From a virus (Duplodnaviria > Caudoviricetes), in the IMG/VR virus record IMGVR_UViG_3300031851_000017, positions 2,054 through 66,053 of that record: a stretch of DNA of 64,000 nucleotides; one strand, given 5' to 3'. The notes beneath the pieces were generated by a model that was not told the DNA's origin, made no database searches, and worked only from the letters and a program-made list of their open reading frames with translations. Both the position numbers and the translations under genes were made by a program. This document shows, piece after piece, positions 36,515 through 55,701 of this stretch (position 1 is the stretch's first letter; each line of letters starts with the position of its first letter).

Positions 36515-39500
36515 CTAATTCAATCCCATTAATTGCTTATATTTATACTGTGCGGCTAAAATCCTAGCGTTATCATTCATAGAAGTTTCTTTAGAACCCA
36601 CTTTACTCGGTATAGATGACCCCAATCTTGTTGATGCAGAAAATCCCCTTATTGGTTCATCAGTCTTACTTCCCGACATTGCCGATGATGGATTTAGTGA
36701 TTTTAGTGATTCACTAGTTTTAGAATCAAAGGATACAAATGGAATATATTTTAGTTGACCCAAACCCGCCAACATTCCTCTAGGCAAAGTTGTCATTAAT
36801 TTGCTATCTTTATTTTTTATTTCTAATTTAGGAATTTTCCTTTTATTCGGTAGTATTTCTTCTACAAACAATTGCTGTAATGTTTTAGTTATGTTAAACA
36901 TATTATAACTATTTTGACCTGCTCTATTTTCTCTTAATAAACTTCCTAAGTTTAACAAATTCTTGAATGATTTAAAATCTAATTTATCCACTCTTTTTGT
37001 TTTAGTACCTTTTTCATCTGTTTGTTCTTTTAACGTTATTAAAAAGTTACCGAAAAGACTTACTAACTGTTCTCTATCAGTTTTACTTAGCCAAAAGAAT
37101 AAACTGTTAATTTCATCAACCTCTTCTATTTCTTCGATAGTAAGTGAAAACATTTTTGTTATTTTGTTTAGTTGTTTTTTTCTTAATATTTCAGACTTAC
37201 TAACATTACCCTTTTGGTCTTCATATGTTTGTGTTATTTCTTCAATTATATTATTCAATGTTATTATATCAACATTATCGTATGCAAAATTCCCTCTTAA
37301 TATGCTTTTGTAATAACCTTGATAGCCGTCCTCAAACCATGTTGGAAATATATCAGTTTCCACTGTTTCTTCTTGGTCTACCCATTCTCTTTTTTCTCTT
37401 TCTTCTTTCTGTAAAGAGCCATAAGAAAGAAGTATTTTTTTATTGTCTTCACTTGTAAACCACTTATACGCTTCTGATTCTTTGAACTTATCAAAAATTT
37501 CCTTTGCACTTTCTGTAACTTCTTCTGTAACTTCTTCTGTAAGCATTCCATCCATTTCATCTGAATCAAATCCCACGCGTAGATTTGACAAACCTACGAG
37601 ATATTTTCCATATAATCTAAATAAATTATCAACATCTTCTTGTTTTCCGCTATTTGTTAATTTCTTAATATTTTGAGATGTAATGGTTTTACCATCTTTT
37701 GTTTCAATTTTTAGACGATTCATTAAATCATTTATTTTTTTAAAGTCATTATACGTTGCATCTATCGCCCACCTAATTCTAGTTTCAGGATTTCCTGAAT
37801 TTTCGCCCTTTCCCGATGTGTTAAAAATAGAAGTTGTTAGATAAAAGGCAGCATCATCCCAATTACCTTTGTTAGTAACCTTTTCTAATTTTCTAGGAGA
37901 ACCTTTAGTAAAATTATAACTATCTTTTTGTAAAAGCGTGTGCAATTTTTGTTGGAAAGGCATAATATCATCTACAATTAAATTATGTATTCTATCTACA
38001 TCTTTATGAAATGTGTCGGGGGTGTTGTATAATAATCTAGAATCCGAAGATGTACCTTTAGGTCTTGTTCCTGTATCTTCATCAGCGAGTTGTGTTCCAT
38101 ATTTTTTATTATAGTTTAAAAATTCATTAAAATTCTCTTTACTTTGTAACGCTTCTTTAGCCTTGCCGTCTGCAAATTTTAACTTAAACGTATATTTACC
38201 CATCATTACTTCGCCTTTTTGTGGTGTTAATACTGCTTTAATAGCAGCACCAATATCATACATTGCAGTACTACTTATTCTTGTATCACTAGCAATTATT
38301 TTTTCAATTAATTTAGTGGCTCTTGCCTCATCGGTAATTTCGTTATAAAATTGTTTAACAGTATCGTAAGCCTGTTGTTCAGATAGTCCCATGTAATTGC
38401 CTCCTGTTTCGGGCTTCAAAGAAGAAAACACATTATACATTTCAACTACGGGCGTTTCTATTGGATTGCGATTATCCTTTTGGTCTAAAAATGGATTATT
38501 AGGGTCTTTTGATTGACCTTTAAAATGTCTTTCTAACATTGTGCGTGTAGTTTTTTCATCACTAAATATTCTTTCTAACACTAAAATTCCATTAGTAAAA
38601 CTAGGCTCGAAGAAGTCTTTAAACCCACTAAAATCTGTATCCTTTGGTGTAAATTTTTTATTGGAAAAGTTTTTATTTTTGTTTTTCCAATTAGGTTCTC
38701 TCTTTAAAAAAGTTATAGTTTTCAAAACACTTTTTAGAAGTTGTTTTTCTATATCCTCTTCTTCATCTTGGTCGGTATCTTTAGTTTTTTCTTTATATAC
38801 ATTGTCTATAATATCTAATATTTCTTTAAGGACAGAAATGGCAAATTTCTGTTCGTTTCCTTCACTATCTTTTGGTTCGGATATTCGCTCTACAAACGCA
38901 CTACCGCCTTCTGATAAATCGCTAAGCAACATTAAAATCCATTTTGTCTTAGCATCTGATGTTTCAAAAATTTCTTTAGCCTTTGCAAACTTCTTTTTCT
39001 CATTTTCTTCACCATCTAATAGTGTCGTTAGATATTTAGTTTTTTCATTACTCTGACTTGTAGTATTTATCCATTTCTCGTATAGGTCTATTTTCGTTTT
39101 TAAATCTTCATCATCCCTAGTTGATAAATTATATTTAGATTTCTCATCTAATATATTTTTATCTAGTCCGGCTTTATCAAACACTTTTTGAAAATACTTA
39201 TTAGTGTCTATAATAATATTAAGTGAAGATTTGGTTTCTTTACCACTCTCTGATTTTGATGTTTCTAATTTAACAGTAATTATTCCTTTTTCTTTTAATA
39301 TTTCAGGTATATAAATAACCTTAGATTTATCAAATGAATCTATAACACTGTAATTACTTTCATCATCAACTTCTTCTAAAAGTGCAAGTTTATCTTCAAG
39401 ACCCTGTTCTATTGCTTCTTCAAATTCTGCATCAAAATTCATTCGTTTCTCTTTAGAGAGTCCATTCCTATGTTCCTTTAAGTTTTTAATTTTTTTATTC

Positions 39501-40111
39501 TTTAAATAATTAGTTTTTATTTTTTCTCTCATATCTTCTATTTCTTTATTAGTAATTTTAGGTTTATCATAAGTTTCTTCTAATAATTGGTTTCGTCTTT
39601 TTTCATTGAGAAAATGTTTAGTTAGAAAGTTTATTTTTTTAGCCCTATTTAATAAATTAACGCTAAAAATATATTTATCATCAGTTCTAGTTAATTTTTT
39701 CTTTTTTTGTTCTTTAGAGGTATCATATATTGTTACATAACCTTTATCTGCTAATTTTTCTATCAACGAGTGTAATTTTACCTTTCCTATTTTTTCCATT
39801 ATTAATTTTATCAATTTCTTTAATTCTTTTGATTTGAGTCTTCTTACATTAGCATCTTTATCTTTAAAATCATCCTCATCTGCTTCCCTAATATCCCTAA
39901 CAGAAAGGTTTGCCTTTTTCATTTTTTCATTGGGATTTTCTACTGACTTAAAAAAGATAGAAGCAGCAAATTTTTCAAAAAATTGTTCTATTCTTTTATT
40001 AGAGTGAGAAAATTCTTTATCATTAAATAATTCAATATTTTCTTCGGTTAATAAGAACTCGGTTAGTTGGTATCTATCTATACTACTATTAATCCATACA
40101 CCCTTTTTCAT
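36515..40111 (-). CDS. Large K/E/D-rich hypothetical protein (1198 aa), possible internal virion protein
   Basis: Long ORF with GGTGG RBS; no motif recognised. Confidence 0.75.
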   Translation of the reverse strand: MKKGVWINSSIDRYQLTEFLLTEENIELFNDKEFSHSNKRIEQFFEKFAASIFFKSVENPNEKMKKANLSVRDIREADEDDFKDKDANVRRLKSKELKKLIKLIMEKIGKVKLHSLIEKLADKGYVTIYDTSKEQKKKKLTRTDDKYIFSVNLLNRAKKINFLTKHFLNEKRRNQLLEETYDKPKITNKEIEDMREKIKTNYLKNKKIKNLKEHRNGLSKEKRMNFDAEFEEAIEQGLEDKLALLEEVDDESNYSVIDSFDKSKVIYIPEILKEKGIITVKLETSKSESGKETKSSLNIIIDTNKYFQKVFDKAGLDKNILDEKSKYNLSTRDDEDLKTKIDLYEKWINTTSQSNEKTKYLTTLLDGEENEKKKFAKAKEIFETSDAKTKWILMLLSDLSEGGSAFVERISEPKDSEGNEQKFAISVLKEILDIIDNVYKEKTKDTDQDEEEDIEKQLLKSVLKTITFLKREPNWKNKNKNFSNKKFTPKDTDFSGFKDFFEPSFTNGILVLERIFSDEKTTRTMLERHFKGQSKDPNNPFLDQKDNRNPIETPVVEMYNVFSSLKPETGGNYMGLSEQQAYDTVKQFYNEITDEARATKLIEKIIASDTRISSTAMYDIGAAIKAVLTPQKGEVMMGKYTFKLKFADGKAKEALQSKENFNEFLNYNKKYGTQLADEDTGTRPKGTSSDSRLLYNTPDTFHKDVDRIHNLIVDDIMPFQQKLHTLLQKDSYNFTKGSPRKLEKVTNKGNWDDAAFYLTTSIFNTSGKGENSGNPETRIRWAIDATYNDFKKINDLMNRLKIETKDGKTITSQNIKKLTNSGKQEDVDNLFRLYGKYLVGLSNLRVGFDSDEMDGMLTEEVTEEVTESAKEIFDKFKESEAYKWFTSEDNKKILLSYGSLQKEEREKREWVDQEETVETDIFPTWFEDGYQGYYKSILRGNFAYDNVDIITLNNIIEEITQTYEDQKGNVSKSEILRKKQLNKITKMFSLTIEEIEEVDEINSLFFWLSKTDREQLVSLFGNFLITLKEQTDEKGTKTKRVDKLDFKSFKNLLNLGSLLRENRAGQNSYNMFNITKTLQQLFVEEILPNKRKIPKLEIKNKDSKLMTTLPRGMLAGLGQLKYIPFVSFDSKTSESLKSLNPSSAMSGSKTDEPIRGFSASTRLGSSIPSKVGSKETSMNDNARILAAQYKYKQLMGLN

Positions 40112-41533: not shown

Positions 41534-42202
41534 TTAGTAGTCCTTTATCATTGTTAGGATTCCTCTATATACCATCTCTGAATCAGATTTGGCACTTACT
41601 ATATATTTGTAGCATGGTATTCCTTTATCATTTAACTTCTGCATTCCATTTCTAAAGGATTCAAATATTGGGTGTTTTTCTATTGTCTCATAATCATATT
41701 TGTCTTTCCACAAATCATGTTTATTAGCCCAAAGACCAACTGCTACTGGGTAATCATGTAACTTTTTCTTTTTCTTCTTTCCTCCAATGTTCCAATAAGG
41801 ATTACAAATAGTATCTACTAAAAAAGTCCAACATAACTGTTGTTCTATATCGTAGTGCTTATCCATATGTCTATCATCTAACATGAATATAATATATTTA
41901 ACTTTTCTAGTTCTCATATCTTCTATCCATTCTTGCCAAAAAACAGTTTCTCCTCCTACATCTGCCGTCTTAACTGTGTGTGCATCACCATCTAATTTTA
42001 CATATTTTCTTGATGCTCTATGTAGTCCTACTGTTCTATCTGTAATAGAAGGGACTTCACCTCTTGTTCTTAGTTGATGATGTAGTGTAGTTTTACCTGC
42101 CTTACTTGCTCCATATACACCGAATGGTATTGAATGCAATCTTTGATAAACTTTATTCAATCCTTCAACTAATAGAATAGCGAAGCCCGCCATTACTGAC
42201 AT
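41534..42202 (-). CDS. Arf/Sar-like small GTPase
   Basis: G1 GASKAGKT, G2 RTVG, G3 DVGGE, G4 NKHD, G5 SAK; N-terminal hydrophobic/amphipathic helix. Confidence 0.9.
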   Translation of the reverse strand: MSVMAGFAILLVEGLNKVYQRLHSIPFGVYGASKAGKTTLHHQLRTRGEVPSITDRTVGLHRASRKYVKLDGDAHTVKTADVGGETVFWQEWIEDMRTRKVKYIIFMLDDRHMDKHYDIEQQLCWTFLVDTICNPYWNIGGKKKKKKLHDYPVAVGLWANKHDLWKDKYDYETIEKHPIFESFRNGMQKLNDKGIPCYKYIVSAKSDSEMVYRGILTMIKDY

Positions 42203-43692: not shown

Positions 43693-45096
43693 TTAAGCAC
43701 TCTTTAGGTTTGTAATTTTACCTTGTCCCTTGAAGAAAGAACAGCAAGTTTCTCCCATAGTACGGTACATTCCTTGATTTCCAAGTTTACCAACACCGAA
43801 TGGGTTTCCACTAGTAATACCATCTTCGAAGTATTGTGTAGGTTTCATTACAGATAGCCACAAGTGGTCAGTATCTAGAACTAATATATCACTAATTCTG
43901 TTAGATGTGGACTTACCTGTTGACGGCATATCTTTAGCAGGGATGATTGGTATGTCATAGTATGTTGCAACTCTGAAACCAACTTCTTGACCCTTGACAC
44001 CACGAACACCATTATGGGAAGGAACGATTTCTTTCCTATCCATAAATCTCTCTTGTGATTGTAGTAAATCAGAGATTTTCTGAATGGTATCGTATCCTGT
44101 AATCATAACTTTAGGGTTTCCACCGTTAGTACGGATTCTTCTAATCATATCATTAAGAATACTTAGTGTTAGAACCCTACATTCACCTGATGTATAACCT
44201 GCACCGAAATCAACTTCTGCATCTAGGAAAGAAGGAACACCTGTGTAGGTATAATTTCCACTTCCACCGGATGTGTTAACAGTAACAGTTCTAGTTGAAC
44301 CAAAGATAGTAGTAGCATCAGCAAGTTGTGCTGCTGTACCGTTATTTGTTTGGTTGTGATAGAATACGTCATCGTCAGCCATAGTTGCAAGTTCAACCGC
44401 AGATGAAACTATCTTCATTAAAGAAGTATAGTTCTTCTCAATACCTGTTGTACCGTTCTCTGAGTATTTCTCAAGAGGCATAACTAACATTTTACTCTGA
44501 ACTTCTGCGTGTAGTTTACCCATGTCTTCTCTAACGATAGCACGAATATCACCAACACCATCATCAATTGCAGCCATTTCCATTCCTAGTTCTGAGAACT
44601 CGAATAGATGTGCAATAGTCTTAGGGCTAACATATAGTTTAGTATATTCAGGAGCAATTGCTCTGAAACCATCTGCACCACCTAATGTTGCGTTTTCTCC
44701 AACACCACCAATTTGGTCTGCTCTAGGAGTTGCTGCATCTGCTGATGAAATACTAGCGGTAACTGCATTAGTACCTGTACCGAATGCTGCATCACTACCA
44801 CCAATAGGTCGTGATTTCAGAACTCTCCATCCACTAGATGTGTATGGTCTCTTAGCAAGCATTGCTAGAGGGTTTACTTCTTGGTTTAATACAGACCAAA
44901 CTTTCTGTCCGTATAGTAGGTTGTACAAATCACCTAGACCTGCTGCACCCGTAAATGCATTAGCACTAGTATCGTGAGGAGTACCGAAACCACCTACAAC
45001 TCCACCTGCTTTAAGCAAGGCATTGCCGCTTCCTGTTCCGCCGTATCCGTATGTTGCTGCTTCTAAATCTTTCATTGTTTTAATATATCCACTCAT
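43693..45096 (-). CDS. Major capsid protein (HK97 fold)
   Basis: Follows the protease/scaffold; YGQKVWSVLNQE, SGWRV, SPKTIAH, TYYDIPIIP, GMYRTMGE. Confidence 0.88.
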   Translation of the reverse strand: MSGYIKTMKDLEAATYGYGGTGSGNALLKAGGVVGGFGTPHDTSANAFTGAAGLGDLYNLLYGQKVWSVLNQEVNPLAMLAKRPYTSSGWRVLKSRPIGGSDAAFGTGTNAVTASISSADAATPRADQIGGVGENATLGGADGFRAIAPEYTKLYVSPKTIAHLFEFSELGMEMAAIDDGVGDIRAIVREDMGKLHAEVQSKMLVMPLEKYSENGTTGIEKNYTSLMKIVSSAVELATMADDDVFYHNQTNNGTAAQLADATTIFGSTRTVTVNTSGGSGNYTYTGVPSFLDAEVDFGAGYTSGECRVLTLSILNDMIRRIRTNGGNPKVMITGYDTIQKISDLLQSQERFMDRKEIVPSHNGVRGVKGQEVGFRVATYYDIPIIPAKDMPSTGKSTSNRISDILVLDTDHLWLSVMKPTQYFEDGITSGNPFGVGKLGNQGMYRTMGETCCSFFKGQGKITNLKSA

Positions 45097-45108
45097 AATT
45101 TCACTTCC

Positions 45109-46305
45109 TTAATTTCCCCTCACAAGAGAATGTACGTCATCCCAAGTCATATTGGCTGCTGCCTCTAAACTTGTAGGTATTCCTTCCGGTAATGCCATTG
45201 ACATTTCCACACTTTTGCGAATTGTTGCGTCTTTCTCTGATAGAGATTTTCGTAGTAGAGCAAATTCTTTCTTTAGTGCTGCTACATCTGTTCTAGCATC
45301 GTATGATGCGGATTGTGCTGCTGATTTCTTAACTGCAAGTTCTTCTGAAAGTCTTGCTCCAAATTGCTTAGAAAGATTATCGTATGCAATTTTTTCCATC
45401 TGCTCTGCTTTGAATTGTGCATATGCTTTCTCAACATTATCTGCACTTAGGTTAAGAGTACTAAAGTCAGCAGCATCTAAGCCTTCACTCTTTAGTTCAG
45501 TAGGTGGAGTTGTAGGATTACCGTTATCTACAACCAATGTCCCTGCTTCTGATGTTGTATTATCAATATCAAGAGCCTTCATTTCTTCTTCCTCTTCTTC
45601 TTCTTCTTCAGCCTTCATTTCTTCTTCCTCTTCTTCTTCCTCTTCCATAGTAGCCATACTATATTGGGCGGTCTTCGTTACTTCGTCATATTTTTCTTCC
45701 TCTCCGAGTCCGTTAACTTGTTTCATCAAGTCATTCAACTCTTCGAGTGCTTTTTCCAATTTTTCACTCATTGTTTTATCCTCCATTTTTAAAATGTCGA
45801 ATTTTGCTTCGGGATTAATACCCTTTTCACAGATAGTTACTTCATGTAACTCTAATCTGTCTATCTCATTATATTCACCAAACTCATCTGAGGTTCTTTG
45901 TTTCTTAGAAATCGCCTGACCTCCAATACTAAAAGAACGAAGAGTTCCTTTTCTAATACTTCTTGAAATTTCTTTTGCCTTTTCTATGTCATCTCTTAAT
46001 TTAATAACAACATAAAACCCTACATCATCTACACCAGTTTTATGTAAAGTACCATTCATATCTCTATACTTCTCAATAACTTCTCCAACTTGTACATTAG
46101 AATGATTAGACATAACATTTCTATATTTCTTTTCAGACATATATTTTTCAACTGCTTCATCTAATGCCTTTAATGTAATTAAATCATTTTGCTTATCTAC
46201 AATTTCTATTGAAGCATAGCCACCAATAATTAAATCATCAGACTTAAGAATAGTAAACTCATGCTCTTTATCCGCTTTGAATAAAAGAGATGGCTGCATA
46301 AGCAT
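45109..46305 (-). CDS. Prohead protease fused to acidic scaffold domain
   Basis: IIGGYAS...DKQND, catalytic His (MSNH), SFSIGG, EVTICEKGINPEA; C-terminal coiled E-rich region. Confidence 0.92.
   Translation of the reverse strand: MLMQPSLLFKADKEHEFTILKSDDLIIGGYASIEIVDKQNDLITLKALDEAVEKYMSEKKYRNVMSNHSNVQVGEVIEKYRDMNGTLHKTGVDDVGFYVVIKLRDDIEKAKEISRSIRKGTLRSFSIGGQAISKKQRTSDEFGEYNEIDRLELHEVTICEKGINPEAKFDILKMEDKTMSEKLEKALEELNDLMKQVNGLGEEEKYDEVTKTAQYSMATMEEEEEEEEEMKAEEEEEEEEEMKALDIDNTTSEAGTLVVDNGNPTTPPTELKSEGLDAADFSTLNLSADNVEKAYAQFKAEQMEKIAYDNLSKQFGARLSEELAVKKSAAQSASYDARTDVAALKKEFALLRKSLSEKDATIRKSVEMSMALPEGIPTSLEAAANMTWDDVHSLVRGN
45574..45646 (-). repeat. 36-nt tandem repeat encoding (E9-MKA)x2 in the scaffold
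   Basis: agccttcatttcttcttcctcttcttc occurs at 45574 and 45610. Confidence 0.85.
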
Positions 46306-46351
46306 TATTTTTTTGTCTTTTTACTTTTACTATATTAAGTAATCGCTATTT
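46306..46351 (-). promoter_or_regulatory. Putative archaeal TATA-box promoter for the protease-capsid operon
   Basis: Minus-strand TTAATATA (46331-46338) 26-33 nt upstream of the ATG; no SD, consistent with a leaderless mRNA. Confidence 0.5.
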
Positions 46352-48967
46352 TTAATTTGGTAATGTCAAATTAGCATATTTATCTTCTTGTATATTCCAA
46401 ACATCTACTTCATTTCCATCTTTTAACATATCTTGTTTTTTACCCGTCCAAGCAACCCATCTTTTTTTCTCATTTAGAGGCACTACTCTTAGATGTAATC
46501 TAGTCTCAAACTTATCTCCCTCTAATTTGTATTCGTGATAACCGTCTTTTTGTACTCCTAGAATAATATCACCTTTATCTATGACCTTACCTGCAATTAT
46601 TTTTTCTGCTACAATAGCAGGGTATTTTACAGATTTACCAAACAAATTGTATATATCATCAGTATCTCCTATGTCAATTAACCAAGCAAATCTATTTTTT
46701 TTATAGTCTATAATTAAATTAATATTACCATCGTCTTGTCTATTTATAGTAAACTTACCTTTTCTTGAATCTTCTTTTTGAATAATATTTTCATCAGTTT
46801 CCTTTTCTTCTTTATCTTTTTCTATGTAAGATTCATCAACAACAAAAACTTGGGGGTCTTCTTTATCTAAAAATTCAACAGAATCTTGTTGTTTTAACCA
46901 ACCTGTTAATTTTTTAGGATTACCATCAATCCAACCCGCCCATGCTTTATTGTGCTTAGTTTGCACAAATTGAACTATTTCTTCTGAGGTTAATTTTTCA
47001 TTCGGACTATCCGCTATCTCGTTCTTTATCGCTATTCTTAATTCAGACCTACTGTGTTTTATTAATTTAGATATTTCTTCTTTCCATAAATCAATGTTAT
47101 AAAGAGCATTTTTCTCCATTAAATTATCGCCATCAAAACCATAGATAGTAAACCCATCTAAATCTTCCTTTAATATGATTTCAGCAGTACCGTGTATATC
47201 ATCTGTAATGTAATATCCCTTTTTAATTTTTTTAGGTTTAAGTAAATTAGATTCTAACCCACTCATAACTCTAAATGGAGCAGATACAGCAGAACCAATT
47301 AGATTATTTATTGCACTAGATAATGATTTTTTACTTTTAGATGCTAATTTTTCCAAAGTAGCAATATTATCTGATTGTGTTACTTCGGGTATTTCTATCA
47401 CTTTAGCAGAATACAAACTGAATCCATTTTTTTTCTTTGTTACTTCATCAACTTTAACTCTAACAATAGAGCCTATGTCAACATTTATTTTTGTGTTGAG
47501 AGCCTTACCAACTTCTAAATATGCCTTATCTTCATAATCAACAGTTGCATAATTTCTAGAAACTTCTGCCGTAACAGCACCAATACCCATAGTGTAGGAA
47601 TATAAATTGCTTTTTGTTTTTCTTTTATTTAACACAACTACATCTAAATCAACAAACTTCTTCCACTTAACCCATTTTGGGTTTTTCCTATTCCCTATGT
47701 AATAAGTAGATTCAATATCTTTTATAACAACACCTTCTGACGCAGGTAATTTCATAATATCCTTTGAATACTCTTCCACTTCTTTCTTAGAGTCTGCTAT
47801 TCTAGTGTCTTTTTTAGAAGGAAACGCCATCTGTTCAGAAGAATGCTGTGCGTATTGATATAATAAAATATTAATTCTTTCTCTAAGTGGAGAATCTGTT
47901 ATGTCTTTACCTTCATGTACCATGATATCAAAAACGTGTGCTTTCAGACTACCCTTTGTTTTCTTATGAAATACATGAGTAATAGTATCTGCTCTATGAA
48001 GGGGTTCATCACCTAAAAATAACATTAATTCAGCATCTAATATACAATCGCCAAATTGTTTTTTCTCCATATGTTTTACTTGTTCGGGACATTTAGAAGT
48101 AATGTCTTTTTGATTAAATGAATAAATCTTAACTTTACCATTAAACTTGTGTATCTGTATTCTCATCCCGTCATATTTTTCTTGTACTACAAACTCTCCG
48201 GTTAGTCCCTTAATTTCATCTAAATCGTCTATTTCAAAAATACGATACATTGGTTTATTTGGTCTAATAAAATCTATTTCTGCTTTCTCTTCCATTGATT
48301 TAGAAATATCTAATTCTAATAATGCGTCCCAATCTTCATCATCATATTTTTCCAAATAAATATTTTCTAATTTTTTAAATGCTTCTTTACATTTTGTTTC
48401 TATTCTTTCAGTATTGTCATCAGAACTACCATAGTGTTCTATAATGTAAATAGGCACATCTTTGGGTTCTAAATCTAAACCCATATATCCTTGTGTAATT
48501 TCATCGGGTTTCAAACCATGTGCTTTCCAAGACTTTTCGGGTATTGGGTTTGTGTGGGAACGTACTGCATAATGAATAAACGATAATAACACAGATTCAT
48601 TTTCTAAGAGTACTTTAATTACATCATCACCTAACTGTTTAGAAAAAGGGTCGCTAATTTTATCTGACTTAAATCTAAGTTCTTTAACACTATCATAGAT
48701 TTCTTTTGCTTGTCTAGAATTGGGGTCATAGGCTTCGTTAGAAAAAGCAACTTTTTCTTTTAAATAGGTTTTTAATTCTCTAGAAAAATCATCTAAAGAA
48801 TCAAATTGGTCTCTAACTTCTTTGACAGTTTGCTTCCATTTTTCTCCATATTCAGAAGGACTTTCTTTTGCAGAAAGATAAGAATATCTAACTCTTTCAA
48901 AGAAATCTAAAACTCTTTTAGTTAAAGGTGTTTTTTTCTTTTCAAAGAAAAGTCCTGTTTGTGGCAT
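46352..48967 (-). CDS. lig: ATP-dependent DNA ligase with N- and C-terminal extensions
   Basis: Motif I EKYDG, ILDAEL, HVFDI, EGVVIK, WVKWK, OB domain. Confidence 0.9.
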   Translation of the reverse strand: MPQTGLFFEKKKTPLTKRVLDFFERVRYSYLSAKESPSEYGEKWKQTVKEVRDQFDSLDDFSRELKTYLKEKVAFSNEAYDPNSRQAKEIYDSVKELRFKSDKISDPFSKQLGDDVIKVLLENESVLLSFIHYAVRSHTNPIPEKSWKAHGLKPDEITQGYMGLDLEPKDVPIYIIEHYGSSDDNTERIETKCKEAFKKLENIYLEKYDDEDWDALLELDISKSMEEKAEIDFIRPNKPMYRIFEIDDLDEIKGLTGEFVVQEKYDGMRIQIHKFNGKVKIYSFNQKDITSKCPEQVKHMEKKQFGDCILDAELMLFLGDEPLHRADTITHVFHKKTKGSLKAHVFDIMVHEGKDITDSPLRERINILLYQYAQHSSEQMAFPSKKDTRIADSKKEVEEYSKDIMKLPASEGVVIKDIESTYYIGNRKNPKWVKWKKFVDLDVVVLNKRKTKSNLYSYTMGIGAVTAEVSRNYATVDYEDKAYLEVGKALNTKINVDIGSIVRVKVDEVTKKKNGFSLYSAKVIEIPEVTQSDNIATLEKLASKSKKSLSSAINNLIGSAVSAPFRVMSGLESNLLKPKKIKKGYYITDDIHGTAEIILKEDLDGFTIYGFDGDNLMEKNALYNIDLWKEEISKLIKHSRSELRIAIKNEIADSPNEKLTSEEIVQFVQTKHNKAWAGWIDGNPKKLTGWLKQQDSVEFLDKEDPQVFVVDESYIEKDKEEKETDENIIQKEDSRKGKFTINRQDDGNINLIIDYKKNRFAWLIDIGDTDDIYNLFGKSVKYPAIVAEKIIAGKVIDKGDIILGVQKDGYHEYKLEGDKFETRLHLRVVPLNEKKRWVAWTGKKQDMLKDGNEVDVWNIQEDKYANLTLPN

Positions 48968-48977
48968 ACTACCTCAC

Positions 48978-49199
48978 TCAGTTGGAATCTTTCTTTTCTT
49001 TTCCTTCGATGTTACTAGTTTTAGGTAATTGTACTTCTGATGGATTTTTCTTTGGCCTTTTTACTTTAACTTCTTCGCCTGTTAGTGGTTCATCTATTTC
49101 CATTGTATTTACATTAGCCTCTTGTAAAACTTCCTTTGCTTTAGCAATTACTAGTTCTAATAATTTTTCTTTTTTTGTTACTCTTTCCGGCATATTCAA
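48978..49199 (-). CDS. Hypothetical protein (73 aa)
   Basis: In-operon ORF. Confidence 0.6.
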   Translation of the reverse strand: MNMPERVTKKEKLLELVIAKAKEVLQEANVNTMEIDEPLTGEEVKVKRPKKNPSEVQLPKTSNIEGKEKKDSN

Positions 49200-49540
49200 G
49201 CCCCCGCTACTCTATCAAAAGATTGTCCTTCTCTTCTAAAATTTCCATCTATATCCATTTGAAAGTAGATAATATCTTCTCCGTTTTCATCTTTAACATC
49301 AACATACAAACCACCTGCTTTTTCATCGGGGTCAAGACTCAATGATATGTCTAATATTTTTCCTAATCCCTCTAATTCATTACCATCATTAATACTACGT
49401 TGCAACTCCGCTAAATTTTCTTCGGTATAATCGCCTTCATCAAATATATTGTCGTTTAAAAATCTTTCAACTTCTTTTTCTAACATATTAATAAACCCTG
49501 CATCTATTTCGATTCTTTTTAATATATTTTTCCAACTCAT
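49196..49540 (-). CDS. Leader-family protein (MSWKNILK)
   Basis: Start re-assigned to ATG 49540 after GGAGA RBS. Confidence 0.75.
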   Translation of the reverse strand: MSWKNILKRIEIDAGFINMLEKEVERFLNDNIFDEGDYTEENLAELQRSINDGNELEGLGKILDISLSLDPDEKAGGLYVDVKDENGEDIIYFQMDIDGNFRREGQSFDRVAGA

Positions 49541-49542
49541 AT

Positions 49543-49758
49543 CTATCTCTCCATCGTAGTTACTAATTCGTGTATGTCTTCCCAAGCCATACTCTTTTTA
49601 ATAGTATTATTATTTTCCATCATCGGTGAAGGTGATTCAACTACAACTAATCCTGATTTCATAAGTAAATTATCTTTATGATAAACCGCCTCTTCTAAAT
49701 GTTTCACCTTGTTCACTAATTCTTTCAATAACATTAACATTTCATTATCTTCACTCAT
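49543..49758 (-). CDS. Small coiled-coil protein ending in a scaffold-like MAWEDIHELV motif
   Basis: C-terminus resembles the scaffold C-terminus MTWDDVHSLV. Confidence 0.7.
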   Translation of the reverse strand: MSEDNEMLMLLKELVNKVKHLEEAVYHKDNLLMKSGLVVVESPSPMMENNNTIKKSMAWEDIHELVTTMER

Positions 49759-49827: not shown

Positions 49828-49980
49828 TCATCTCTTACTCACCATCTCATCAACCGCTTGTTTTAAATCATTTATAATTGTTCTAAGTTTAGTTCTAAAA
49901 GCAAGAGGGATTTCCATTGTGCTTATAGTTTCTATAATGGCTTTCAATGTTTGAATTGTTCGTTGGTCGTATTTTGTCAT
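49828..49980 (-). CDS. Small helical protein (50 aa), not in ORF track
   Basis: GGTGATTTAGAATG junction; MTKYDQRTIQTLKAIIETIS...VSKR*. Confidence 0.6.
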   Translation of the reverse strand: MTKYDQRTIQTLKAIIETISTMEIPLAFRTKLRTIINDLKQAVDEMVSKR

Positions 49981-50315
49981 TCTAAATCACCTTTCATAAG
50001 TAGTTCAAATCCTTGTTTTTTTAATTTTTTATATGCTTCTAATGGCTTATTCATAGAAAGCCACATAATCATAGATGCAACTTCTGCATTAACAGTGTTA
50101 CCTTTCAGTTTCATTGTGTATTTGCCTTCATTTGAGTAAGCATCCTCAACAATTTTTTTAAATTCTTCAAACCTCATATGTATTTTGACTTCTTTGTTAC
50201 CATACTTGTCGAACATAGCCTCAAAATTATTTGGTTCATCTTCTTTAGACAATGAAGGGAAATGGCTTTCATCATATCGTTTCATGTCTATTTTTATTAT
50301 ATCTTCCCAACTCAT
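49977..50315 (-). CDS. Leader-family protein (MSWEDIIK)
   Basis: Start re-assigned to ATG 50315 (ATGA overlap, GGGGAG RBS). Confidence 0.75.
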   Translation of the reverse strand: MSWEDIIKIDMKRYDESHFPSLSKEDEPNNFEAMFDKYGNKEVKIHMRFEEFKKIVEDAYSNEGKYTMKLKGNTVNAEVASMIMWLSMNKPLEAYKKLKKQGFELLMKGDLE

Positions 50316-50470
50316 ATTTCTCCCCCACACACAACACAACGGTGTCCATCTCCTTTACCATTTTTACCTTCTATAAAATCCATTTCTTTTCCACAACAAT
50401 GCGGAACTCCATTTTTAATATGAGGCACTTTCTTCCTACGTTCTTCTTTTAGTATATCTTCCCAACTCAT
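50312..50470 (-). CDS. Leader-family Zn-ribbon protein (MSWEDILK, 52 aa), not in ORF track
   Basis: MSWEDILKEERRKKVPHIKNGVPHCCGKEMDFIEGKNGKGDGHRCVVCGGEI*. Confidence 0.75.
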   Translation of the reverse strand: MSWEDILKEERRKKVPHIKNGVPHCCGKEMDFIEGKNGKGDGHRCVVCGGEI

Positions 50471-50483
50471 TTTAAATCACCTT

Positions 50484-51047
50484 TCATTCATTCACTCTCC
50501 TTAATAATCCAGCACTATCAAAGACGAGATGTGCGAAGGGGTATTTATTTTGTAAGTCCTCTAAAGACTCACCATTACTTATCCCTGCTTTAAAGGCAGA
50601 TAGTTCTCTAGAATCTTTGTAATCAGTAAATGGGTTTTCATAATATTGGTCTGTGAAGTCATCCATTAGAGAAACCACTTGTGCATTTTTATTTCCTCTT
50701 TTTGGAGAAGTATAACCATCATCATCCTCATCATCTTTCAATTCAGTATAGACAGATATGATTGATTGATATAAGTCCTCATATTCTTCATCGTCAACCG
50801 AAGTATTTTGATATCGTTTTATGTCTTTTGACAGTCTACTTATCTTATCATTCTTGTCCTTTACATATTCAAGCATCTTTTCACATATGTCGTATAGTTC
50901 TTGGTCAACTTCTAACAGTTCCTCTTTTTTGTAAACATAGGTTTCTTCTAGGCTGTGTAACTTTTGAAGAAGGTCAAACATTTCTTTAGGTAGAATCTTT
51001 TCCTCACCAATTGTCATATATATTTTTATTACGTCAAACCAACTCAT
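50484..51047 (-). CDS. Leader-family acidic protein (MSWFDVIK)
   Basis: 187-aa ORF with the repeat junction at its start. Confidence 0.8.
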   Translation of the reverse strand: MSWFDVIKIYMTIGEEKILPKEMFDLLQKLHSLEETYVYKKEELLEVDQELYDICEKMLEYVKDKNDKISRLSKDIKRYQNTSVDDEEYEDLYQSIISVYTELKDDEDDDGYTSPKRGNKNAQVVSLMDDFTDQYYENPFTDYKDSRELSAFKAGISNGESLEDLQNKYPFAHLVFDSAGLLRRVNE

Positions 51048-51063
51048 TCTAAATCACTCCACA

Positions 51064-51333
51064 TTACCTAATCTGACTTTTATTGATACCTACACCTCTG
51101 ACGGTGAATTTCTCTGTCTCTCTAGGTCTATCTTTTGTTCCCATTAGACATCTAACAAAAATAGGCAGGTCAAAACCAAGAACAGGTTGTGAGGAAGAGG
51201 AATAAATAACGTCGGATTTAACACCAAACTTCTCATCTATCATTTTCATGATATCTTCTAAATTCCCCTCTTCTCCTATCAGTTCCTCTAACTCTGCCAT
51301 TACATCTTTCTTTAGTATATCTTCCCAACTCAT
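51064..51333 (-). CDS. Leader-family protein (MSWEDILK)
   Basis: Start re-assigned to ATG 51333. Confidence 0.75.
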   Translation of the reverse strand: MSWEDILKKDVMAELEELIGEEGNLEDIMKMIDEKFGVKSDVIYSSSSQPVLGFDLPIFVRCLMGTKDRPRETEKFTVRGVGINKSQIR

Positions 51334-51334
51334 T

Positions 51335-51604
51335 TTAATCTCTCCGCATTTCAAATTGCATATCTTCTAAGCGTTGTTCATATTCATTTCTTTCTTCTTG
51401 GGCAGTTTCTTCTCTATCTTTCTGATTCATTACATTACGTGGTTGTTCTTTTCCTGAAGAATTAACCATGTCCTGTATCTCTCTTCGTTCTTTGGTCTTT
51501 TGCCTTTCATTAGTAAAAGAAACCGGACTACCATTTACCTTTCTATTCAGACTTAATTTTTTTCTTGTCGTATTTTTTCTTTTAACAATGTCAAACCAAC
51601 TCAT
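51335..51604 (-). CDS. Leader-family protein (MSWFDIVK), highly charged
   Basis: ORF with a perfect junction repeat at its start. Confidence 0.78.
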   Translation of the reverse strand: MSWFDIVKRKNTTRKKLSLNRKVNGSPVSFTNERQKTKERREIQDMVNSSGKEQPRNVMNQKDREETAQEERNEYEQRLEDMQFEMRRD

Positions 51605-51610
51605 TCTAAA

Positions 51611-51925
51611 TCACCTTCTACCGTAATTCTCAAACACTTCTTCTTCATCATCTAACGCATTTCTTAATTTTACAATATAAGAATAAAAGTCTATATTATC
51701 TAATATTACATATATTTCCTCGGCAACGCTATGAAATAATTCACTTCTTGGTATTTTTTCATAAGTGGCAGGTTCATTTGCTTTAGGTTTACTATCTATG
51801 AACTCTTTTAATATTTTCCTATGTTTATCCATATCCGAACTAAGCCTATTGATGTAGTCGTGTAATTCGTGAGAATAGACTATTTTCTCACTTCTATCTT
51901 TTTTTACTATATCTTCCCAACTCAT
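51611..51925 (-). CDS. Leader-family protein (MSWEDIVK)
   Basis: ORF with a perfect junction repeat at its start. Confidence 0.78.
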   Translation of the reverse strand: MSWEDIVKKDRSEKIVYSHELHDYINRLSSDMDKHRKILKEFIDSKPKANEPATYEKIPRSELFHSVAEEIYVILDNIDFYSYIVKLRNALDDEEEVFENYGRR

Positions 51926-52191
51926 TCTAAATCACCATAATACCCATTTCGGAAACCTTTTCCTTTGTTGAGTAATTCAATCCACGCCATTCTCAAATCA
52001 TCTTCCCTCGTAATTGCATTTGTTAATTGAGTTAGTTTTTCGTCTTGTTGTTCTTTAGGTAACTTCATAATTTCAGTAACATTTGTCAAGACATACTGGG
52101 CATTTTTTATATTATTGCCTACCATGTATCTTGCGAACTCATCTACATCCCTAAACATATATTCTTTCTTTAGTATATCTTTCCAACTCAT
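51922..52191 (-). CDS. Leader-family protein (MSWKDILK)
   Basis: ORF with a perfect junction repeat at its start; ends GDLE. Confidence 0.78.
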   Translation of the reverse strand: MSWKDILKKEYMFRDVDEFARYMVGNNIKNAQYVLTNVTEIMKLPKEQQDEKLTQLTNAITREDDLRMAWIELLNKGKGFRNGYYGDLE

Positions 52192-52514
52192 TCTAAATCA
52201 CCCTTACTTTTTGGATAAACTAAGTCTCGTATTTGACGATACAACGTTTCGTAATCTTTTCTAAGTTCTGCTGCCGATGAAACTATTTCTAGATTCTTTT
52301 CATCAAAGCCCTCGAACTTTTTTTGAAGTCTTTTATCAGACTTAATTAAGTCTAATTTTTTCATCTCATCTAACAGGTCTGAAAGATGTGTCATCTCTTG
52401 ACCCATGTATTCAGTAGGCTGAGTTTTTTGAAGAAGTTTCTTAAGTTTCTTCTTTTGTTTAGAATCAACTTTTTCTAAAATTGAAGGTGATTTTAGTATT
52501 TCCTTCCAACCCAT
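52188..52514 (-). CDS. Leader-family protein (MGWKEILK)
   Basis: Probable ATG at 52514; ends GDLE. Confidence 0.75.
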   Translation of the reverse strand: MGWKEILKSPSILEKVDSKQKKKLKKLLQKTQPTEYMGQEMTHLSDLLDEMKKLDLIKSDKRLQKKFEGFDEKNLEIVSSAAELRKDYETLYRQIRDLVYPKSKGDLE

Positions 52515-52563: not shown

Positions 52564-54774
52564 TTATTTTAACTGATTACGGTCATTGAACTCAGTATAT
52601 TCATATTCAGATTCATCTGTATCTGTAATATCATTCCCTTTAGGTTCATCTGTTTTATTACTAAGGAAACCATCTACCCTTTTCGCAAAAGTATTAATTT
52701 TATTGGTAATGTTACTGAGTTCTCTTCTAACAGTATTTGCATTCCTTAAAGCAAGAACCGCCCATTTTTGTTTATCTAAATCTGAGTTCTGTTTTACTAA
52801 TTTATTTAAAAAATTACTTTTTAATAACACATAGTTTAGTATTTCAGAATTATTAATTTCGGAAGTGCTATCTTCATCATATTTAGGCAAAGAAGTTTCT
52901 TTCTCTTTAAATTTTTCACCACTTGATTCTTCAATTATTTCAAACTTTAATGCAAAATCTATCCATAACTTTTCAATTTCTTCTTTGTTTTTTCTTAAAA
53001 GATTAAATCTATTTCTTTCAATTGCTCCCATATCGTCTTCCGACCGTTCTCTAGAAATTGTAGTTTTTTGGTCTAAAAATGGGTTATTGGGGTTTTTTGA
53101 TTGGCCTTCAAAATGTTGACTAACGTTCCTATCTACTAATTTTCTTTTACCATCTTTATCTTTTACACTTCCTTTTGGTGTAATAGTTAATTTTTTTTCT
53201 ATTTCTTTAAATACATTTGTTACACTATTAAAAAGATATTTTCTTTTTTCGTTTATTTTCAAGCCCCGTACTTTACTTTCATAATCATCTAAAAGTTCAC
53301 TACTTCCTTCTTGTTCTTCACTACCAGATTCTAATTCTCTTGCAATATTACTTAACATTTGTTTGAACTCACTTACTGAAAATGTCTCTCCCTTAATAGA
53401 AAACGTATTATTACTTAAAGAATCGAAATTGACTTCATCTCTATTTGTAAGTGAAGTAGCGGCTACAAAAACCACACCTAAACTATTAGCAATATCCCTA
53501 TGTTTCTGTAAATCAGAAATATCTCTTCTAGTGTCATTATAAATATTTACTATTGATGGTTTTAAATTAAAACCTTTAGTTTCTAATATAATTTTTGTAA
53601 AATGCAAGACTTCGTGATTTTGTTTTGCTTTTTTCAGAGAAATATTAATTTGATATATCATATTTTGTTTCATTTGTATAGCCTTTTCATCATCAGTATC
53701 AAGAGGACTTAACATTTCAACAATTTCAGTTATTTCGTCTACTAGGTGATTTGTGTCTTCCATTATCTCATATGCAAGGGTTAGTAAATCTTCTTTAGTA
53801 AGTTCAGTTTTATCTGTAACTGCCCCACCAAGAACAGTTAATATACCCTCTATTTGGTCTTTAAAATCCATATCATTCTTATTATCACTATACAAATTCA
53901 TCATTTCTCTAATGTTATTAAAATATTCTTGGGTATCTAAATTTAAATATTCTATTAATCTTTTACTGCCCTTATACGTTTTAATATCATCTTCGACTTC
54001 TATTCCAAGTTTATCGAATATATTATTTAAAATGTCCCTTGACGGTTTATTACCATATATTTTGAATTGGTTTAACCAACCACCTACCTTTGAATAAAAT
54101 GCCCCTTCTTCTACTAACAATTTTCTTAAATTGGGAGAAATGTCCTTTCTGCCTTTGAAAAAATCGTTAATTGAATTATATAAATCAAATATTAATTTAA
54201 CTTCATCATCATTGTCTCTATCAACATCACCATTTTCTAAAATAACCTTAAGTTTTTCTTCTATTTCTTCCGCTTCAGTAGGTAAAGGAGTATCAAGAAC
54301 TTTTTCTATTTTAGTAAAAAAATTAGGTTTTTCTTTTGTTCCAAAAAATAATTTATGTACTTTAGGATATTTCTCTTCGGAATATTTTTTCTTAAGGTAA
54401 TAAATAGCAGATTCTAAATTAAGTAAAGTCCTTATTTCATCTGTCCGTCCAGTAGATTCTAATACAACTTCTGTTAGGTCATCTTTTGTTTTAATGTTTT
54501 TACTCTTTTTCTTTGTAGCAAGTATTTCTGTTGTACCGCCAGCGCCCTCAAAAAGACCATCAAATATTATTTCTTGTCCTAAACCATTTTTTTCATTGGA
54601 TTCTTTTTTCTTATCTTCCCGAACTAAATCATTATATTTTTTTTCTAAAGTCCTTATTTCGTTAATAGTAATATTATGAATCTCTCTTCTATTCTTAAAT
54701 AATACGCTTAATATTTTACCCCAATCTTTTTGTGCCTTCATAATATCTTTTTTTAAAATATCCATAAACGACAC
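52564..54774 (-). CDS. Large helical leader-family protein (MSFMDILK, 736 aa)
   Basis: GTG start; K/E/D/N-rich; shares a 17-aa motif with 36515..40111. Confidence 0.78.
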   Translation of the reverse strand: MSFMDILKKDIMKAQKDWGKILSVLFKNRREIHNITINEIRTLEKKYNDLVREDKKKESNEKNGLGQEIIFDGLFEGAGGTTEILATKKKSKNIKTKDDLTEVVLESTGRTDEIRTLLNLESAIYYLKKKYSEEKYPKVHKLFFGTKEKPNFFTKIEKVLDTPLPTEAEEIEEKLKVILENGDVDRDNDDEVKLIFDLYNSINDFFKGRKDISPNLRKLLVEEGAFYSKVGGWLNQFKIYGNKPSRDILNNIFDKLGIEVEDDIKTYKGSKRLIEYLNLDTQEYFNNIREMMNLYSDNKNDMDFKDQIEGILTVLGGAVTDKTELTKEDLLTLAYEIMEDTNHLVDEITEIVEMLSPLDTDDEKAIQMKQNMIYQINISLKKAKQNHEVLHFTKIILETKGFNLKPSIVNIYNDTRRDISDLQKHRDIANSLGVVFVAATSLTNRDEVNFDSLSNNTFSIKGETFSVSEFKQMLSNIARELESGSEEQEGSSELLDDYESKVRGLKINEKRKYLFNSVTNVFKEIEKKLTITPKGSVKDKDGKRKLVDRNVSQHFEGQSKNPNNPFLDQKTTISRERSEDDMGAIERNRFNLLRKNKEEIEKLWIDFALKFEIIEESSGEKFKEKETSLPKYDEDSTSEINNSEILNYVLLKSNFLNKLVKQNSDLDKQKWAVLALRNANTVRRELSNITNKINTFAKRVDGFLSNKTDEPKGNDITDTDESEYEYTEFNDRNQLK

Positions 54775-54787
54775 AATCTAACCCCCC

Positions 54788-55018
54788 TTAAAATGGTATA
54801 TTTTCACTACGCATATTCTTTCTTTTAGGTGTTATCATAACATCGGGAATATTACTAGGTGCATCATCTGTTTTATTTTTCAATGTTGTACTTGGGTCAA
54901 TCCCTACAACAGAATAGTCCCTACTAATAGTAACATTTTTCTTTTGTTCCGCACCTTCTTTTATTCTCGCTTGTTTTAACTCTCTTTCTAATTGCCTTAC
55001 ACTTTTTTCTTCACTCAT
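54788..55018 (-). CDS. Hypothetical protein (76 aa)
   Basis: GAGGTGA RBS, ATGA overlap with the upstream gene. Confidence 0.65.
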   Translation of the reverse strand: MSEEKSVRQLERELKQARIKEGAEQKKNVTISRDYSVVGIDPSTTLKNKTDDAPSNIPDVMITPKRKNMRSENIPF

Positions 55019-55422
55019 TTTCTTTCACCTCTTGCCTTTTCATTTTTAGCCTTCCATCGTGCTAATAATTCCGCTTCGTTTTCTTCTGTTCTTTTAGCGG
55101 CTTCTGCATCTTGCCCTGTGGAAGTTTTAGTTGCTATTAATTCATTAGCATGATATAATTTAACACTATTTTCATTATGTGGGTTTTCTGTCATTAAAGT
55201 GCCATCGGGCATCTTATGTGTTTTACCTTCCCATAATTTACCATCTTTAGTATAATGTCGAACACCCTGTTCTTTTGTCATTTCATCTAATTCCGGTTCT
55301 AAAAAACTTTTTTCATTTTCTCTTCTTCTAGAAGTTGAGTCTTTGGGGGACTTGTAACCTCTGCCTCGCAATCCTGTTCCCTTTCTTTTGCCCGTTCTTT
55401 TTATTACATTAAACCAACTCAT
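55015..55422 (-). CDS. Leader-family protein (MSWFNVIK) with His-rich HKMPDG module
   Basis: HYTKDGKLWEGKTHKMPDGTLMT...LYH; GGTGA RBS. Confidence 0.75.
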   Translation of the reverse strand: MSWFNVIKRTGKRKGTGLRGRGYKSPKDSTSRRRENEKSFLEPELDEMTKEQGVRHYTKDGKLWEGKTHKMPDGTLMTENPHNENSVKLYHANELIATKTSTGQDAEAAKRTEENEAELLARWKAKNEKARGERK

Positions 55423-55497: not shown

Positions 55498-55701
55498 TTA
55501 CTCACTTAATTCCGCTTTGACCCAATCGAACTCATCTTCTACATTATATTTACGAAGTTTGGCTTGTATGTTATTCCAACTCGCCCCGAAGTCTAATAGT
55601 TTTTTTGTATATTCTAAAACACTTCGTTTTCGATTACCATAATCTATCCATTTTGGATAAGCAAACGATGGTTCAAATTTTAACATTTCAAACCAAGCCA
55701 T
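55498..55701 (-). CDS. Leader-family protein (MAWFEMLK)
   Basis: Starts immediately after the portal stop. Confidence 0.65.
   Translation of the reverse strand: MAWFEMLKFEPSFAYPKWIDYGNRKRSVLEYTKKLLDFGASWNNIQAKLRKYNVEDEFDWVKAELSE

Follow-up and report, generated by a model that had tools for sequence, protein, structure and literature searches.

The C-terminal helix of the P22 scaffold binds the capsid protein, the C and Nu3 products of lambda are a nested protease and scaffold with one common C-terminus, and a C-terminal encapsidation signal is said to have been described for the HK97 protease by Duda, Oh and Hendrix in 2013. To our knowledge, little is understood of how internal and minor proteins enter HK97-type capsids without a T4-like core, and we know of no account of it for the tailed viruses of archaea. 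In T4, the capsid targeting sequence (CTS) has been described as the only conserved part of highly diverse internal proteins (PMC3012670). The 80α scaffold and the SaPI1 protein CpmB are reported to have alike C-terminal helix-and-hook segments of ~16-21 residues that bind the same site of the capsid protein, CpmB being a protein of ~72 residues in which a linker joins a helical N-terminal domain for dimerisation to a C-terminal helix (PMC5644958). For encapsulins, the targeting peptides are described as C-terminal in primary cargo and N-terminal in ferredoxin cargo, and as binding to a pocket on the inside of the shell (PMC8346489). Here we report on a short motif, M-x-W-x-[D/E]-[I/V/L], in a stretch of 64,000 nucleotides (nt) of viral DNA (positions 2,054 to 66,053 of the IMG/VR record IMGVR_UViG_3300031851_000017; hereafter the window, whose numbering is used throughout). 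The motif is present at the C-terminus of a fused protease-scaffold ("tail"), at the C-terminus of a conserved helical protein of 71 amino acids (aa), and at the N-terminus ("leader") of a series of mostly small proteins encoded between the portal and scaffold genes. The window is contained in a single contig of 66,053 bp with a G+C content of ~32%, which we treat as magrovirus-like, i.e. as a virus of Marine Group II archaea.

One motif at the ends of three protein classes

The first-pass annotation, made from the sequence alone, had noticed that two proteins of this region finish alike, and it quoted both C-termini correctly: the gene at 45109..46305 (minus strand) ends ...EAAANMTWDDVHSLVRGN and the gene at 49543..49758 (minus strand) ends ...KKSMAWEDIHELVTTMER. 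The features concerned are as follows.

45109..46305, minus strand: 398-aa fusion of a Peptidase_S78 prohead protease and a scaffold region that is predicted to be helical (PF04586; PHROG head maturation protease families)
45112..45150, minus strand: scaffold tail MTWDDVHSLVRGN, residues 386-398 (conservation and predicted helix 388-396)
45109..45771, minus strand: possible nested scaffold-only frame from Met179, with the same tail (GGAGGA 7 nt before the ATG)
49543..49758, minus strand: conserved 71-aa helical ("mini") protein (150 protein clusters at E <= 0.01)
49546..49590, minus strand: tail of the 71-aa protein, MAWEDIHELVTTMER, residues 57-71 (conservation in the family)

The motif is non-random, and it is clustered in the head module (43.7-60.2 kb, minus strand) on one strand. 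A six-frame translation of the window contains 11 matches to the pattern [SAGT]-W-[EDFK]-[DE]-[IVLM], all on the minus strand between 45133 and 55698; nine of them are at the starts of open reading frames (ORFs) and the other two at the C-termini of the scaffold and of the 71-aa protein. The core M-x-W-x-[DEN]-[IVLM] was found 15 times in the six-frame translation of the 66,053-bp contig, with 14 of the 15 inside the head module; 200 Markov-1 randomisations gave a mean of 0.61 and a maximum of 3. Within the last 20 residues, the core is present in 2 of 69 crude gene calls (mean of 0.032 after shuffling of each protein), a number reached by a single one of 2000 shuffles. The motif common to leaders and tails had initially been given as M-x-W-[DE]-D-[IV]. 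This strict form is limited to 4 of the 12 leaders of the window (those in MSWEDI), and it is in its relaxed form that the core stands, in 11 of the 12.

The S78 domain of the protease-scaffold covers residues 26-175 (PF04586, E 2.6e-10, 41.1 bits for a cut-off of 21), and its alignment contains invariant His and Ser residues. The gene ends at 45109, directly upstream of the start of the capsid gene (45096) and on the same strand. Its homologues are marine metagenomic and number in the thousands (4095 of 7998 scored candidates at E <= 0.001), several of them on contigs of 90-106 kb. The proposal of the first-pass annotation depended on conservation of the tail among homologous scaffolds, and conserved it is: 117 of the 120 homologues among those listed have the strict core, two others have LSW for MSW and one is a truncated protein. 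Divergent loci (L028-L036, L039 and L040) have the tail too, and relatives at 38-48% best-segment identity keep it as ...KMDWNEIHLTM... or ...KMDWSDIHSTL.... In an alignment of 39 sequences, in which the scaffold region is far more variable than the protease domain, all sequences have W388 and H392, and the conservation of M386 is at least 90%. The AlphaFold model, which is poor as a whole (mean predicted local distance difference test score, pLDDT, of 45.7), has a helix at 288-370 (pLDDT ~57-75), a short helix at 380-384 and the tail helix at 388-396.

Met179 lies just after the protease domain and is nearly invariant. In 10 loci, which belong to 4 clades, the corresponding Met has a Shine-Dalgarno (SD)-like sequence ahead of it; that of L032 is weak. 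As an SD sequence and an in-frame ATG are found at Met179, and also in relatives, a scaffold-only product of ~220 residues with the same tail is plausible. Such putative expression would resemble that of lambda C/Nu3, in that the in-frame ATG could give a scaffold-only product with the tail of the full-length protein. In contrast to lambda, the motif of the tail recurs here in another small gene and in many putative cargo genes.

The 71-aa protein belongs to a family of 150 clusters of 70-90 residues each, with a highly conserved N-terminal helix region, a variable Pro-containing linker and a conserved tail. The strict core of the tail is found in 112 of 120 members, and the other 8 differ only at position 5 (Q or T), so that all 120 have the tail once these residues are allowed. 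M57 and W59 of the tail are invariant in an alignment of 68 sequences, as are 14 residues between positions 12 and 45. AlphaFold predicts two helices (3-35 and 59-70) joined by the linker (pLDDT 75.4), and in the models of both the scaffold and the 71-aa protein the terminal helix starts at the Trp. In all 18 loci with enough upstream sequence, the gene is ~3.4 kb upstream of the scaffold gene, with a DNA ligase gene in between. These data support the 71-aa protein as a conserved component of the head module. As to its function, Pfam gave only a sub-threshold coiled-coil-like match, a profile search of the PDB gave nothing below E 0.29 (the weak matches include GCN4 coiled coils), and a protein atlas search gave unnamed viral clusters only.

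The possibility that the 71-aa protein is a paralogue of the C-terminal domain of the scaffold was considered and rejected. In an hhalign comparison, its residues 21-68 matched scaffold residues 351-397 (probability 88%, E 3e-6), but without the tails the match falls to E 0.31 and a probability of 0.2%. As the profile signal is gone without the tails, the likeness consists of the tail and a similar architecture. The name "mini-scaffold" from the first pass fits the predicted layout (long helix, linker, terminal helix), which the scaffold model also has at its C-terminus, and it must be taken as an architectural analogy, the profile similarity being confined to the tail. The layout is also that described for CpmB, which likewise has a C-terminal segment in common with a large scaffold (PMC5644958). 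Unlike the 80α and CpmB segments, which are described as having an RIIK hook (PMC5644958), the tails here end ...HSLVRGN and ...HELVTTMER, and the motif doubles as an N-terminal leader. The small protein here is moreover encoded by the virus itself, group-wide and in its own head module (18 of 18 informative loci), and is unlike SaPI1 CpmB in being no hijacking tool of a satellite that redirects the size of the capsid.

The third class is encoded by the leader genes of the window. We count 12 of them, because the starts of three were re-placed at internal ATGs which, from our reading of the DNA, are the true starts and have SD sequences upstream. In the following lines the start is the higher coordinate.

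55498..55701, minus strand: leader gene 1, 67 aa, MAWFEMLKF (SD upstream)
55015..55422, minus strand: leader gene 2, 135 aa, basic, MSWFNVIKR
52564..54774, minus strand: leader gene 3, 736 aa, GTG start, MSFMDILKK, in which F replaces W (orthologues M[ST]FMD[IV]L[KR])
52188..52514, minus strand: leader gene 4, 108 aa, MGWKEILKS
51922..52191, minus strand: leader gene 5, 89 aa, MSWKDILKK
51611..51925, minus strand: leader gene 6, 104 aa, MSWEDIVKK
51335..51604, minus strand: leader gene 7, 89 aa, basic, MSWFDIVKR
51064..51333, minus strand: leader gene 8, 89 aa from the SD-preceded ATG, MSWEDILKK
50484..51047, minus strand: leader gene 9, 187 aa, acidic, MSWFDVIKI
50312..50470, minus strand: leader gene 10, 52 aa, MSWEDILKE, two Cys pairs
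49977..50315, minus strand: leader gene 11, 112 aa from the SD-preceded ATG, MSWEDIIKI
49196..49540, minus strand: leader gene 12, 114 aa from the SD-preceded ATG, MSWKNILKR (start 3 nt past the stop of the 71-aa gene)

These proteins, like the 348 of the wider set of loci described below, have nothing but the leader in common. Their charge goes from basic to strongly acidic, and the curated Pfam cut-off was reached by none of 10 leader proteins of the window, nor by the 187-aa and 736-aa ones. By its description, the T4 CTS is similar, as a short N-terminal peptide that alone is common to diverse, fast-changing small proteins loaded into the prohead (PMC3012670). The virus here differs from T4 in having an S78 (HK97)-type protease joined to its scaffold in one protein, in presumably infecting an archaeon, and in carrying the tag C-terminally too, on the scaffold and on another small protein. 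We know of no such C-terminal tag on a T4 scaffold or second small protein.

Several further observations concern individual leader proteins. The product of leader gene 5 has a second leader-type copy, MAWIELLNK, at residues 68-76, 22 residues from its C-terminus, and the Cys pairs in the product of leader gene 10 (HCCG...CVVCG) resemble a small zinc ribbon. The 736-aa leader protein (residues 551-570) and a 1198-aa tail-side protein (36515..40111, minus strand; residues 526-545), otherwise unrelated, have in common a stretch of 20 residues, HF[EK]GQSK[ND]PNNPFLDQK, with 15 of 20 identical (E 4e-7), which may be a second short linear signal. Three proteins (gene ends 49977, 51922 and 52188, minus strand) finish ...GDLE. 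This ending is the out-of-frame translation of the ribosome-binding site GGTGATTTAGA and of the ATGA stop/start overlap with the following leader gene, and it suggests translational coupling along the leader array.

Occurrence and make-up of the motif in related loci

An exact 18-base sequence from one leader was used as a probe against a viral contig collection, and 98 stretches matched. At least one leader ORF was present in 70 of the 79 loci scanned first, with up to 8 leaders within ~13 kb in some of them; the leaders of one locus were all on one strand, with none on the other. In a set of 146 loci (L049 left out, the window included), 114 have at least one leader, for a total of 348 distinct leader-bearing proteins with a median length of 103 aa (range 30-782 aa). 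Of the 97 probe loci, 58 have a recognisable head or packaging gene within the stretch examined, and 34 have the 71-aa gene.

The leader repertoire is much larger and more scattered elsewhere than in the window. Arrays of up to 8 leaders are found beside a terminase gene or in stretches without a head gene (L059, L073, L083, L085, L093, L100, L106 and others).

The three classes go together. The 71-aa gene is present in all 18 loci in which a tailed scaffold is preceded by at least ~3.6 kb of sequence, and leaders are present in every one of these but L010 (17 of 18; L010 has none in the stretch examined). Neither the 71-aa gene nor leaders were found in any of 7 loci with distant, tail-less S78 scaffolds. 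Among the leader-probe loci (L050-L146), both tails are present in 16 of the 16 in which both C-termini are readable.

The pattern used for collecting leaders and tails required M at position 1 and left positions 7 onward unconstrained. The make-up of the latter is as follows.

Leaders (348 distinct): position 7 is L, I or V in 94%; position 8 is K in 93%
Scaffold tails (31 distinct): position 7 is H in 93%; position 8 is N, A, S or L in 22-25% each, and K in 6%
Tails of the 71-aa protein (39 distinct): position 7 is H in 56%, N in 20% and R in 15%; position 8 is K in 53%

By this make-up, the tails of the 71-aa protein lie between the leaders and the scaffold tails. It had been proposed on first reading that the leader mimics the tail of the scaffold. 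The shared core supports a resemblance, but the systematic differences at positions 7 and 8 show that the leader is not an exact mimic. All distinct tails collected, 31 from scaffolds and 39 from 71-aa proteins, have Met at position 1, as the collecting pattern required; independently of this pattern, it is present in 117 of the 120 listed scaffold homologues (two read L) and, as M57, in all sequences of the 68-sequence alignment. The tail Met is thus kept even though it is not a start codon.

A covariation of the two tails within genomes was also looked for. In the two loci where the scaffold tail has no His at position 7 (L055 and L134), the 71-aa tail has Asn at this position. The 16 informative loci amount to ~11 tail combinations, too few for significance, and covariation was not retained.

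A possible address into the procapsid

That the motif is a shared functional tag is well supported. Going further, we lean, by somewhat more than an even chance, towards a position-independent tag that recruits proteins inside the assembling procapsid, with the inner face of the capsid protein as its most likely receptor. The motif would open a short amphipathic helix and act as an address tag into the procapsid. The protease-scaffold would present it at its C-terminus, as probably would the scaffold-only product started at Met179. The 71-79-aa helical protein, with its C-terminal tag, would be a second scaffold-like or adaptor component, and the small proteins encoded from the portal to the scaffold, a large and fast-changing set (12 here) tagged at the N-terminus, would be internal and possibly ejected head proteins. 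By analogy with P22, 80α and the encapsulins, the proposed receptor is the HK97-type capsid protein, on its inner face, and the S78 protease would remove the scaffold once assembled.

The encapsulin targeting peptides are alike in being short, in standing at either terminus and in belonging to proteins encoded beside the gene of an HK97-fold shell, and differ in being, as described, of the G-S-L type, the motif here being W-x-D-I (M-x-W-x-[DE]-[IVL]) (PMC8346489). Unlike an encapsulin system, the contig represents a true virus, with portal, terminase and tail genes, and the scaffold itself is tagged. One might speculate that magroviruses use one tag for the scaffold, the mini-scaffold and a changing cargo (probably injected and acting on the host), all competing for a single inner pocket of the HK97 fold, as a counterpart of encapsulin loading that is possibly related to it in origin, the H-type and [LIV]-K-type versions setting affinity or the order of release. 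We hold this larger scheme only tentatively, and think it more probably wrong than right.

Each ingredient has a precedent. We found no published description of the combination of scaffold tail, small protein and leader, i.e. of one motif on three protein classes, and a full-text search with the motif strings gave only papers that are unrelated by title and abstract. Term searches of two papers on magroviruses (PMC5434244 and PMC11706807) found no leader, N-terminal feature or such motif, and the supplementary files might hold annotations. If a single tag does mark the scaffold, the conserved 71-aa protein and the many variable leader proteins, one system would unite the recognition of capsid by scaffold with cargo targeting as in T4 and cargo loading as in encapsulins. 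The tag would also be a simple rule for predicting virion-internal proteins from sequence in uncultured viruses, with hundreds of candidate injected proteins identified by it, and it suggests itself as a compact means of loading foreign proteins into capsid shells.

Several points weigh against recruitment to the capsid protein by a common tag. As position 7 differs between leaders and tails, and position 8 between leaders and scaffold tails, the two may have different partners or affinities. Ser at position 2 normally favours removal of the initiator Met, and the Met that matches the tails may thus be absent from mature leaders. The AlphaFold model of the scaffold is of low confidence overall (pLDDT 45.7). 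No head gene is recognisable in the stretches of 39 of the 97 probe loci and several arrays adjoin the terminase gene, so that leader genes cannot all be placed between portal and scaffold. Finally, the co-occurrence of the three classes is limited to one clade and its instances are therefore not phylogenetically independent. A complex prediction for the capsid protein (99-row alignment) with the 71-aa protein had a score of 0.00 in both runs, which counts neither for nor against binding.

The tag could instead dock on the scaffold/protease core or on the portal, through helix bundling or with the N-terminal helix of the 71-aa protein as an adaptor, which we find unlikely. Tagged proteins would in this case still reach the interior of the head, though without a common pocket of the capsid protein. 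This helix is more conserved than the tail (14 invariant residues as compared with M57 and W59), which suggests a specific partner; similar amphipathic helices could pack together, and the T4 CTS is described as delivering proteins into the scaffolding core and not onto the shell (PMC3012670). However, the scaffold C-termini so far characterised, according to the account of 80α and CpmB, bind the capsid protein (PMC5644958), and leaders that bind the scaffold tail would have no obvious reason to resemble it.

It is improbable that the motif is mainly a recognition or cleavage signal of the S78 protease, i.e. a propeptide that marks trimming and not entry into the capsid. The T4 targeting sequence is also cut off by the prohead protease, K at position 8 of the leaders is conserved at 93%, and D/E-x-I-[A/S/G]-K is often found directly before the tail Met in the 71-aa proteins and in several scaffold clades. 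The scaffold clade of the window itself, however, has ...EAAAN ahead of the Met, with no Lys, and a cleavage signal alone leaves unexplained why the motif is always at the extreme end. Cleavage and targeting are in any case compatible, and it is only as cleavage without targeting that this explanation competes with an address tag.

Codon usage bears on the level at which the motif is maintained. Tails and leaders alike use varying synonymous codons for D, H, I, L and K, which argues that selection acts on the peptide and not on the DNA, as do the conservative replacements (I/V/L and D/E/N). Position 2 is different: its codon in leaders nearly always starts with A (AGT, AAT, AAA, ACT), which fits ATGA stop/start overlaps, and Ser at this position is therefore probably not part of the peptide signal but largely a by-product of the overlap. 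We consider it very improbable that the leaders are a nucleotide-level cassette (ribosome-binding site, start and first codons) spread by duplication and recombination, with the tails as fusion relics or chance look-alikes: the strongly conserved upstream sequence of the leaders (GGTGATTTAGA-ATG-AGT-TGG), the common ATGA-type overlaps, the use of AGT in 22 of the 24 leaders with Ser at position 2 (among 36 distinct leader versions) and the conserved tail Met, which fits an origin from a gene start, would all agree with it, but the codons of the tails differ from those of the leaders, neither tail motif has a ribosome-binding site or SD sequence ahead of it, and relatives with an otherwise divergent scaffold region still have the tails.

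The head module and its viral group

The order of the minus-strand module is large terminase, a 448-aa protein, portal, the array of small genes, DNA ligase, protease-scaffold and major capsid protein. Its other features are as follows.

58720..60153, minus strand: large terminase
55702..57360, minus strand: portal protein, upstream edge of the leader-gene array (phrog_18178, E 5.9e-68)
46352..48967, minus strand: ATP-dependent DNA ligase, 871 aa (PF01068, E 2.9e-29)
43693..45096, minus strand: major capsid protein, HK97-type (PF17236 SU10_MCP, E 4.7e-10; PHROG major head protein, E 2.4e-23)

The ligase, between the region of the 71-aa gene and the scaffold gene, has neither leader nor tail. 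The closest named relatives of the capsid protein are capsid proteins of haloviruses (haloarchaeal tailed viruses), at 22.9% identity, and portal, terminase and tail tube genes are all present. For magrovirus groups A and B, a ligase gene among the structural genes has been named as a hallmark, and magroviruses are reported to be among the most abundant viruses of surface oceans (PMC5434244). It is from the placement of the ligase, the relatives of the capsid protein and the marine homologues of the scaffold that the contig is inferred to be magrovirus-like.

HCTV-1, the closest cultured relative, has neither a leader nor such a tail in 8 genes, from just after the portal to just past the capsid gene. 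Its portal-to-protease stretch contains genes for large proteins, one of them gpF-like. As HCTV-1 is without leader and tail, the tag system is not a shared property of this whole capsid lineage.

Downstream of the capsid gene, a 222-aa protein (41534..42202, minus strand) has a weak match to the SRPRB small GTPase family (E 5.5e-5, 23.0 bits for a cut-off of 25) and a P-loop-like GASKAGKT in its translation. Near 12 kb, both GC skew and AT skew flip sign where the coding strand turns from plus to minus, and a fragment of a family B DNA polymerase is encoded at 2040..3740 (plus strand).

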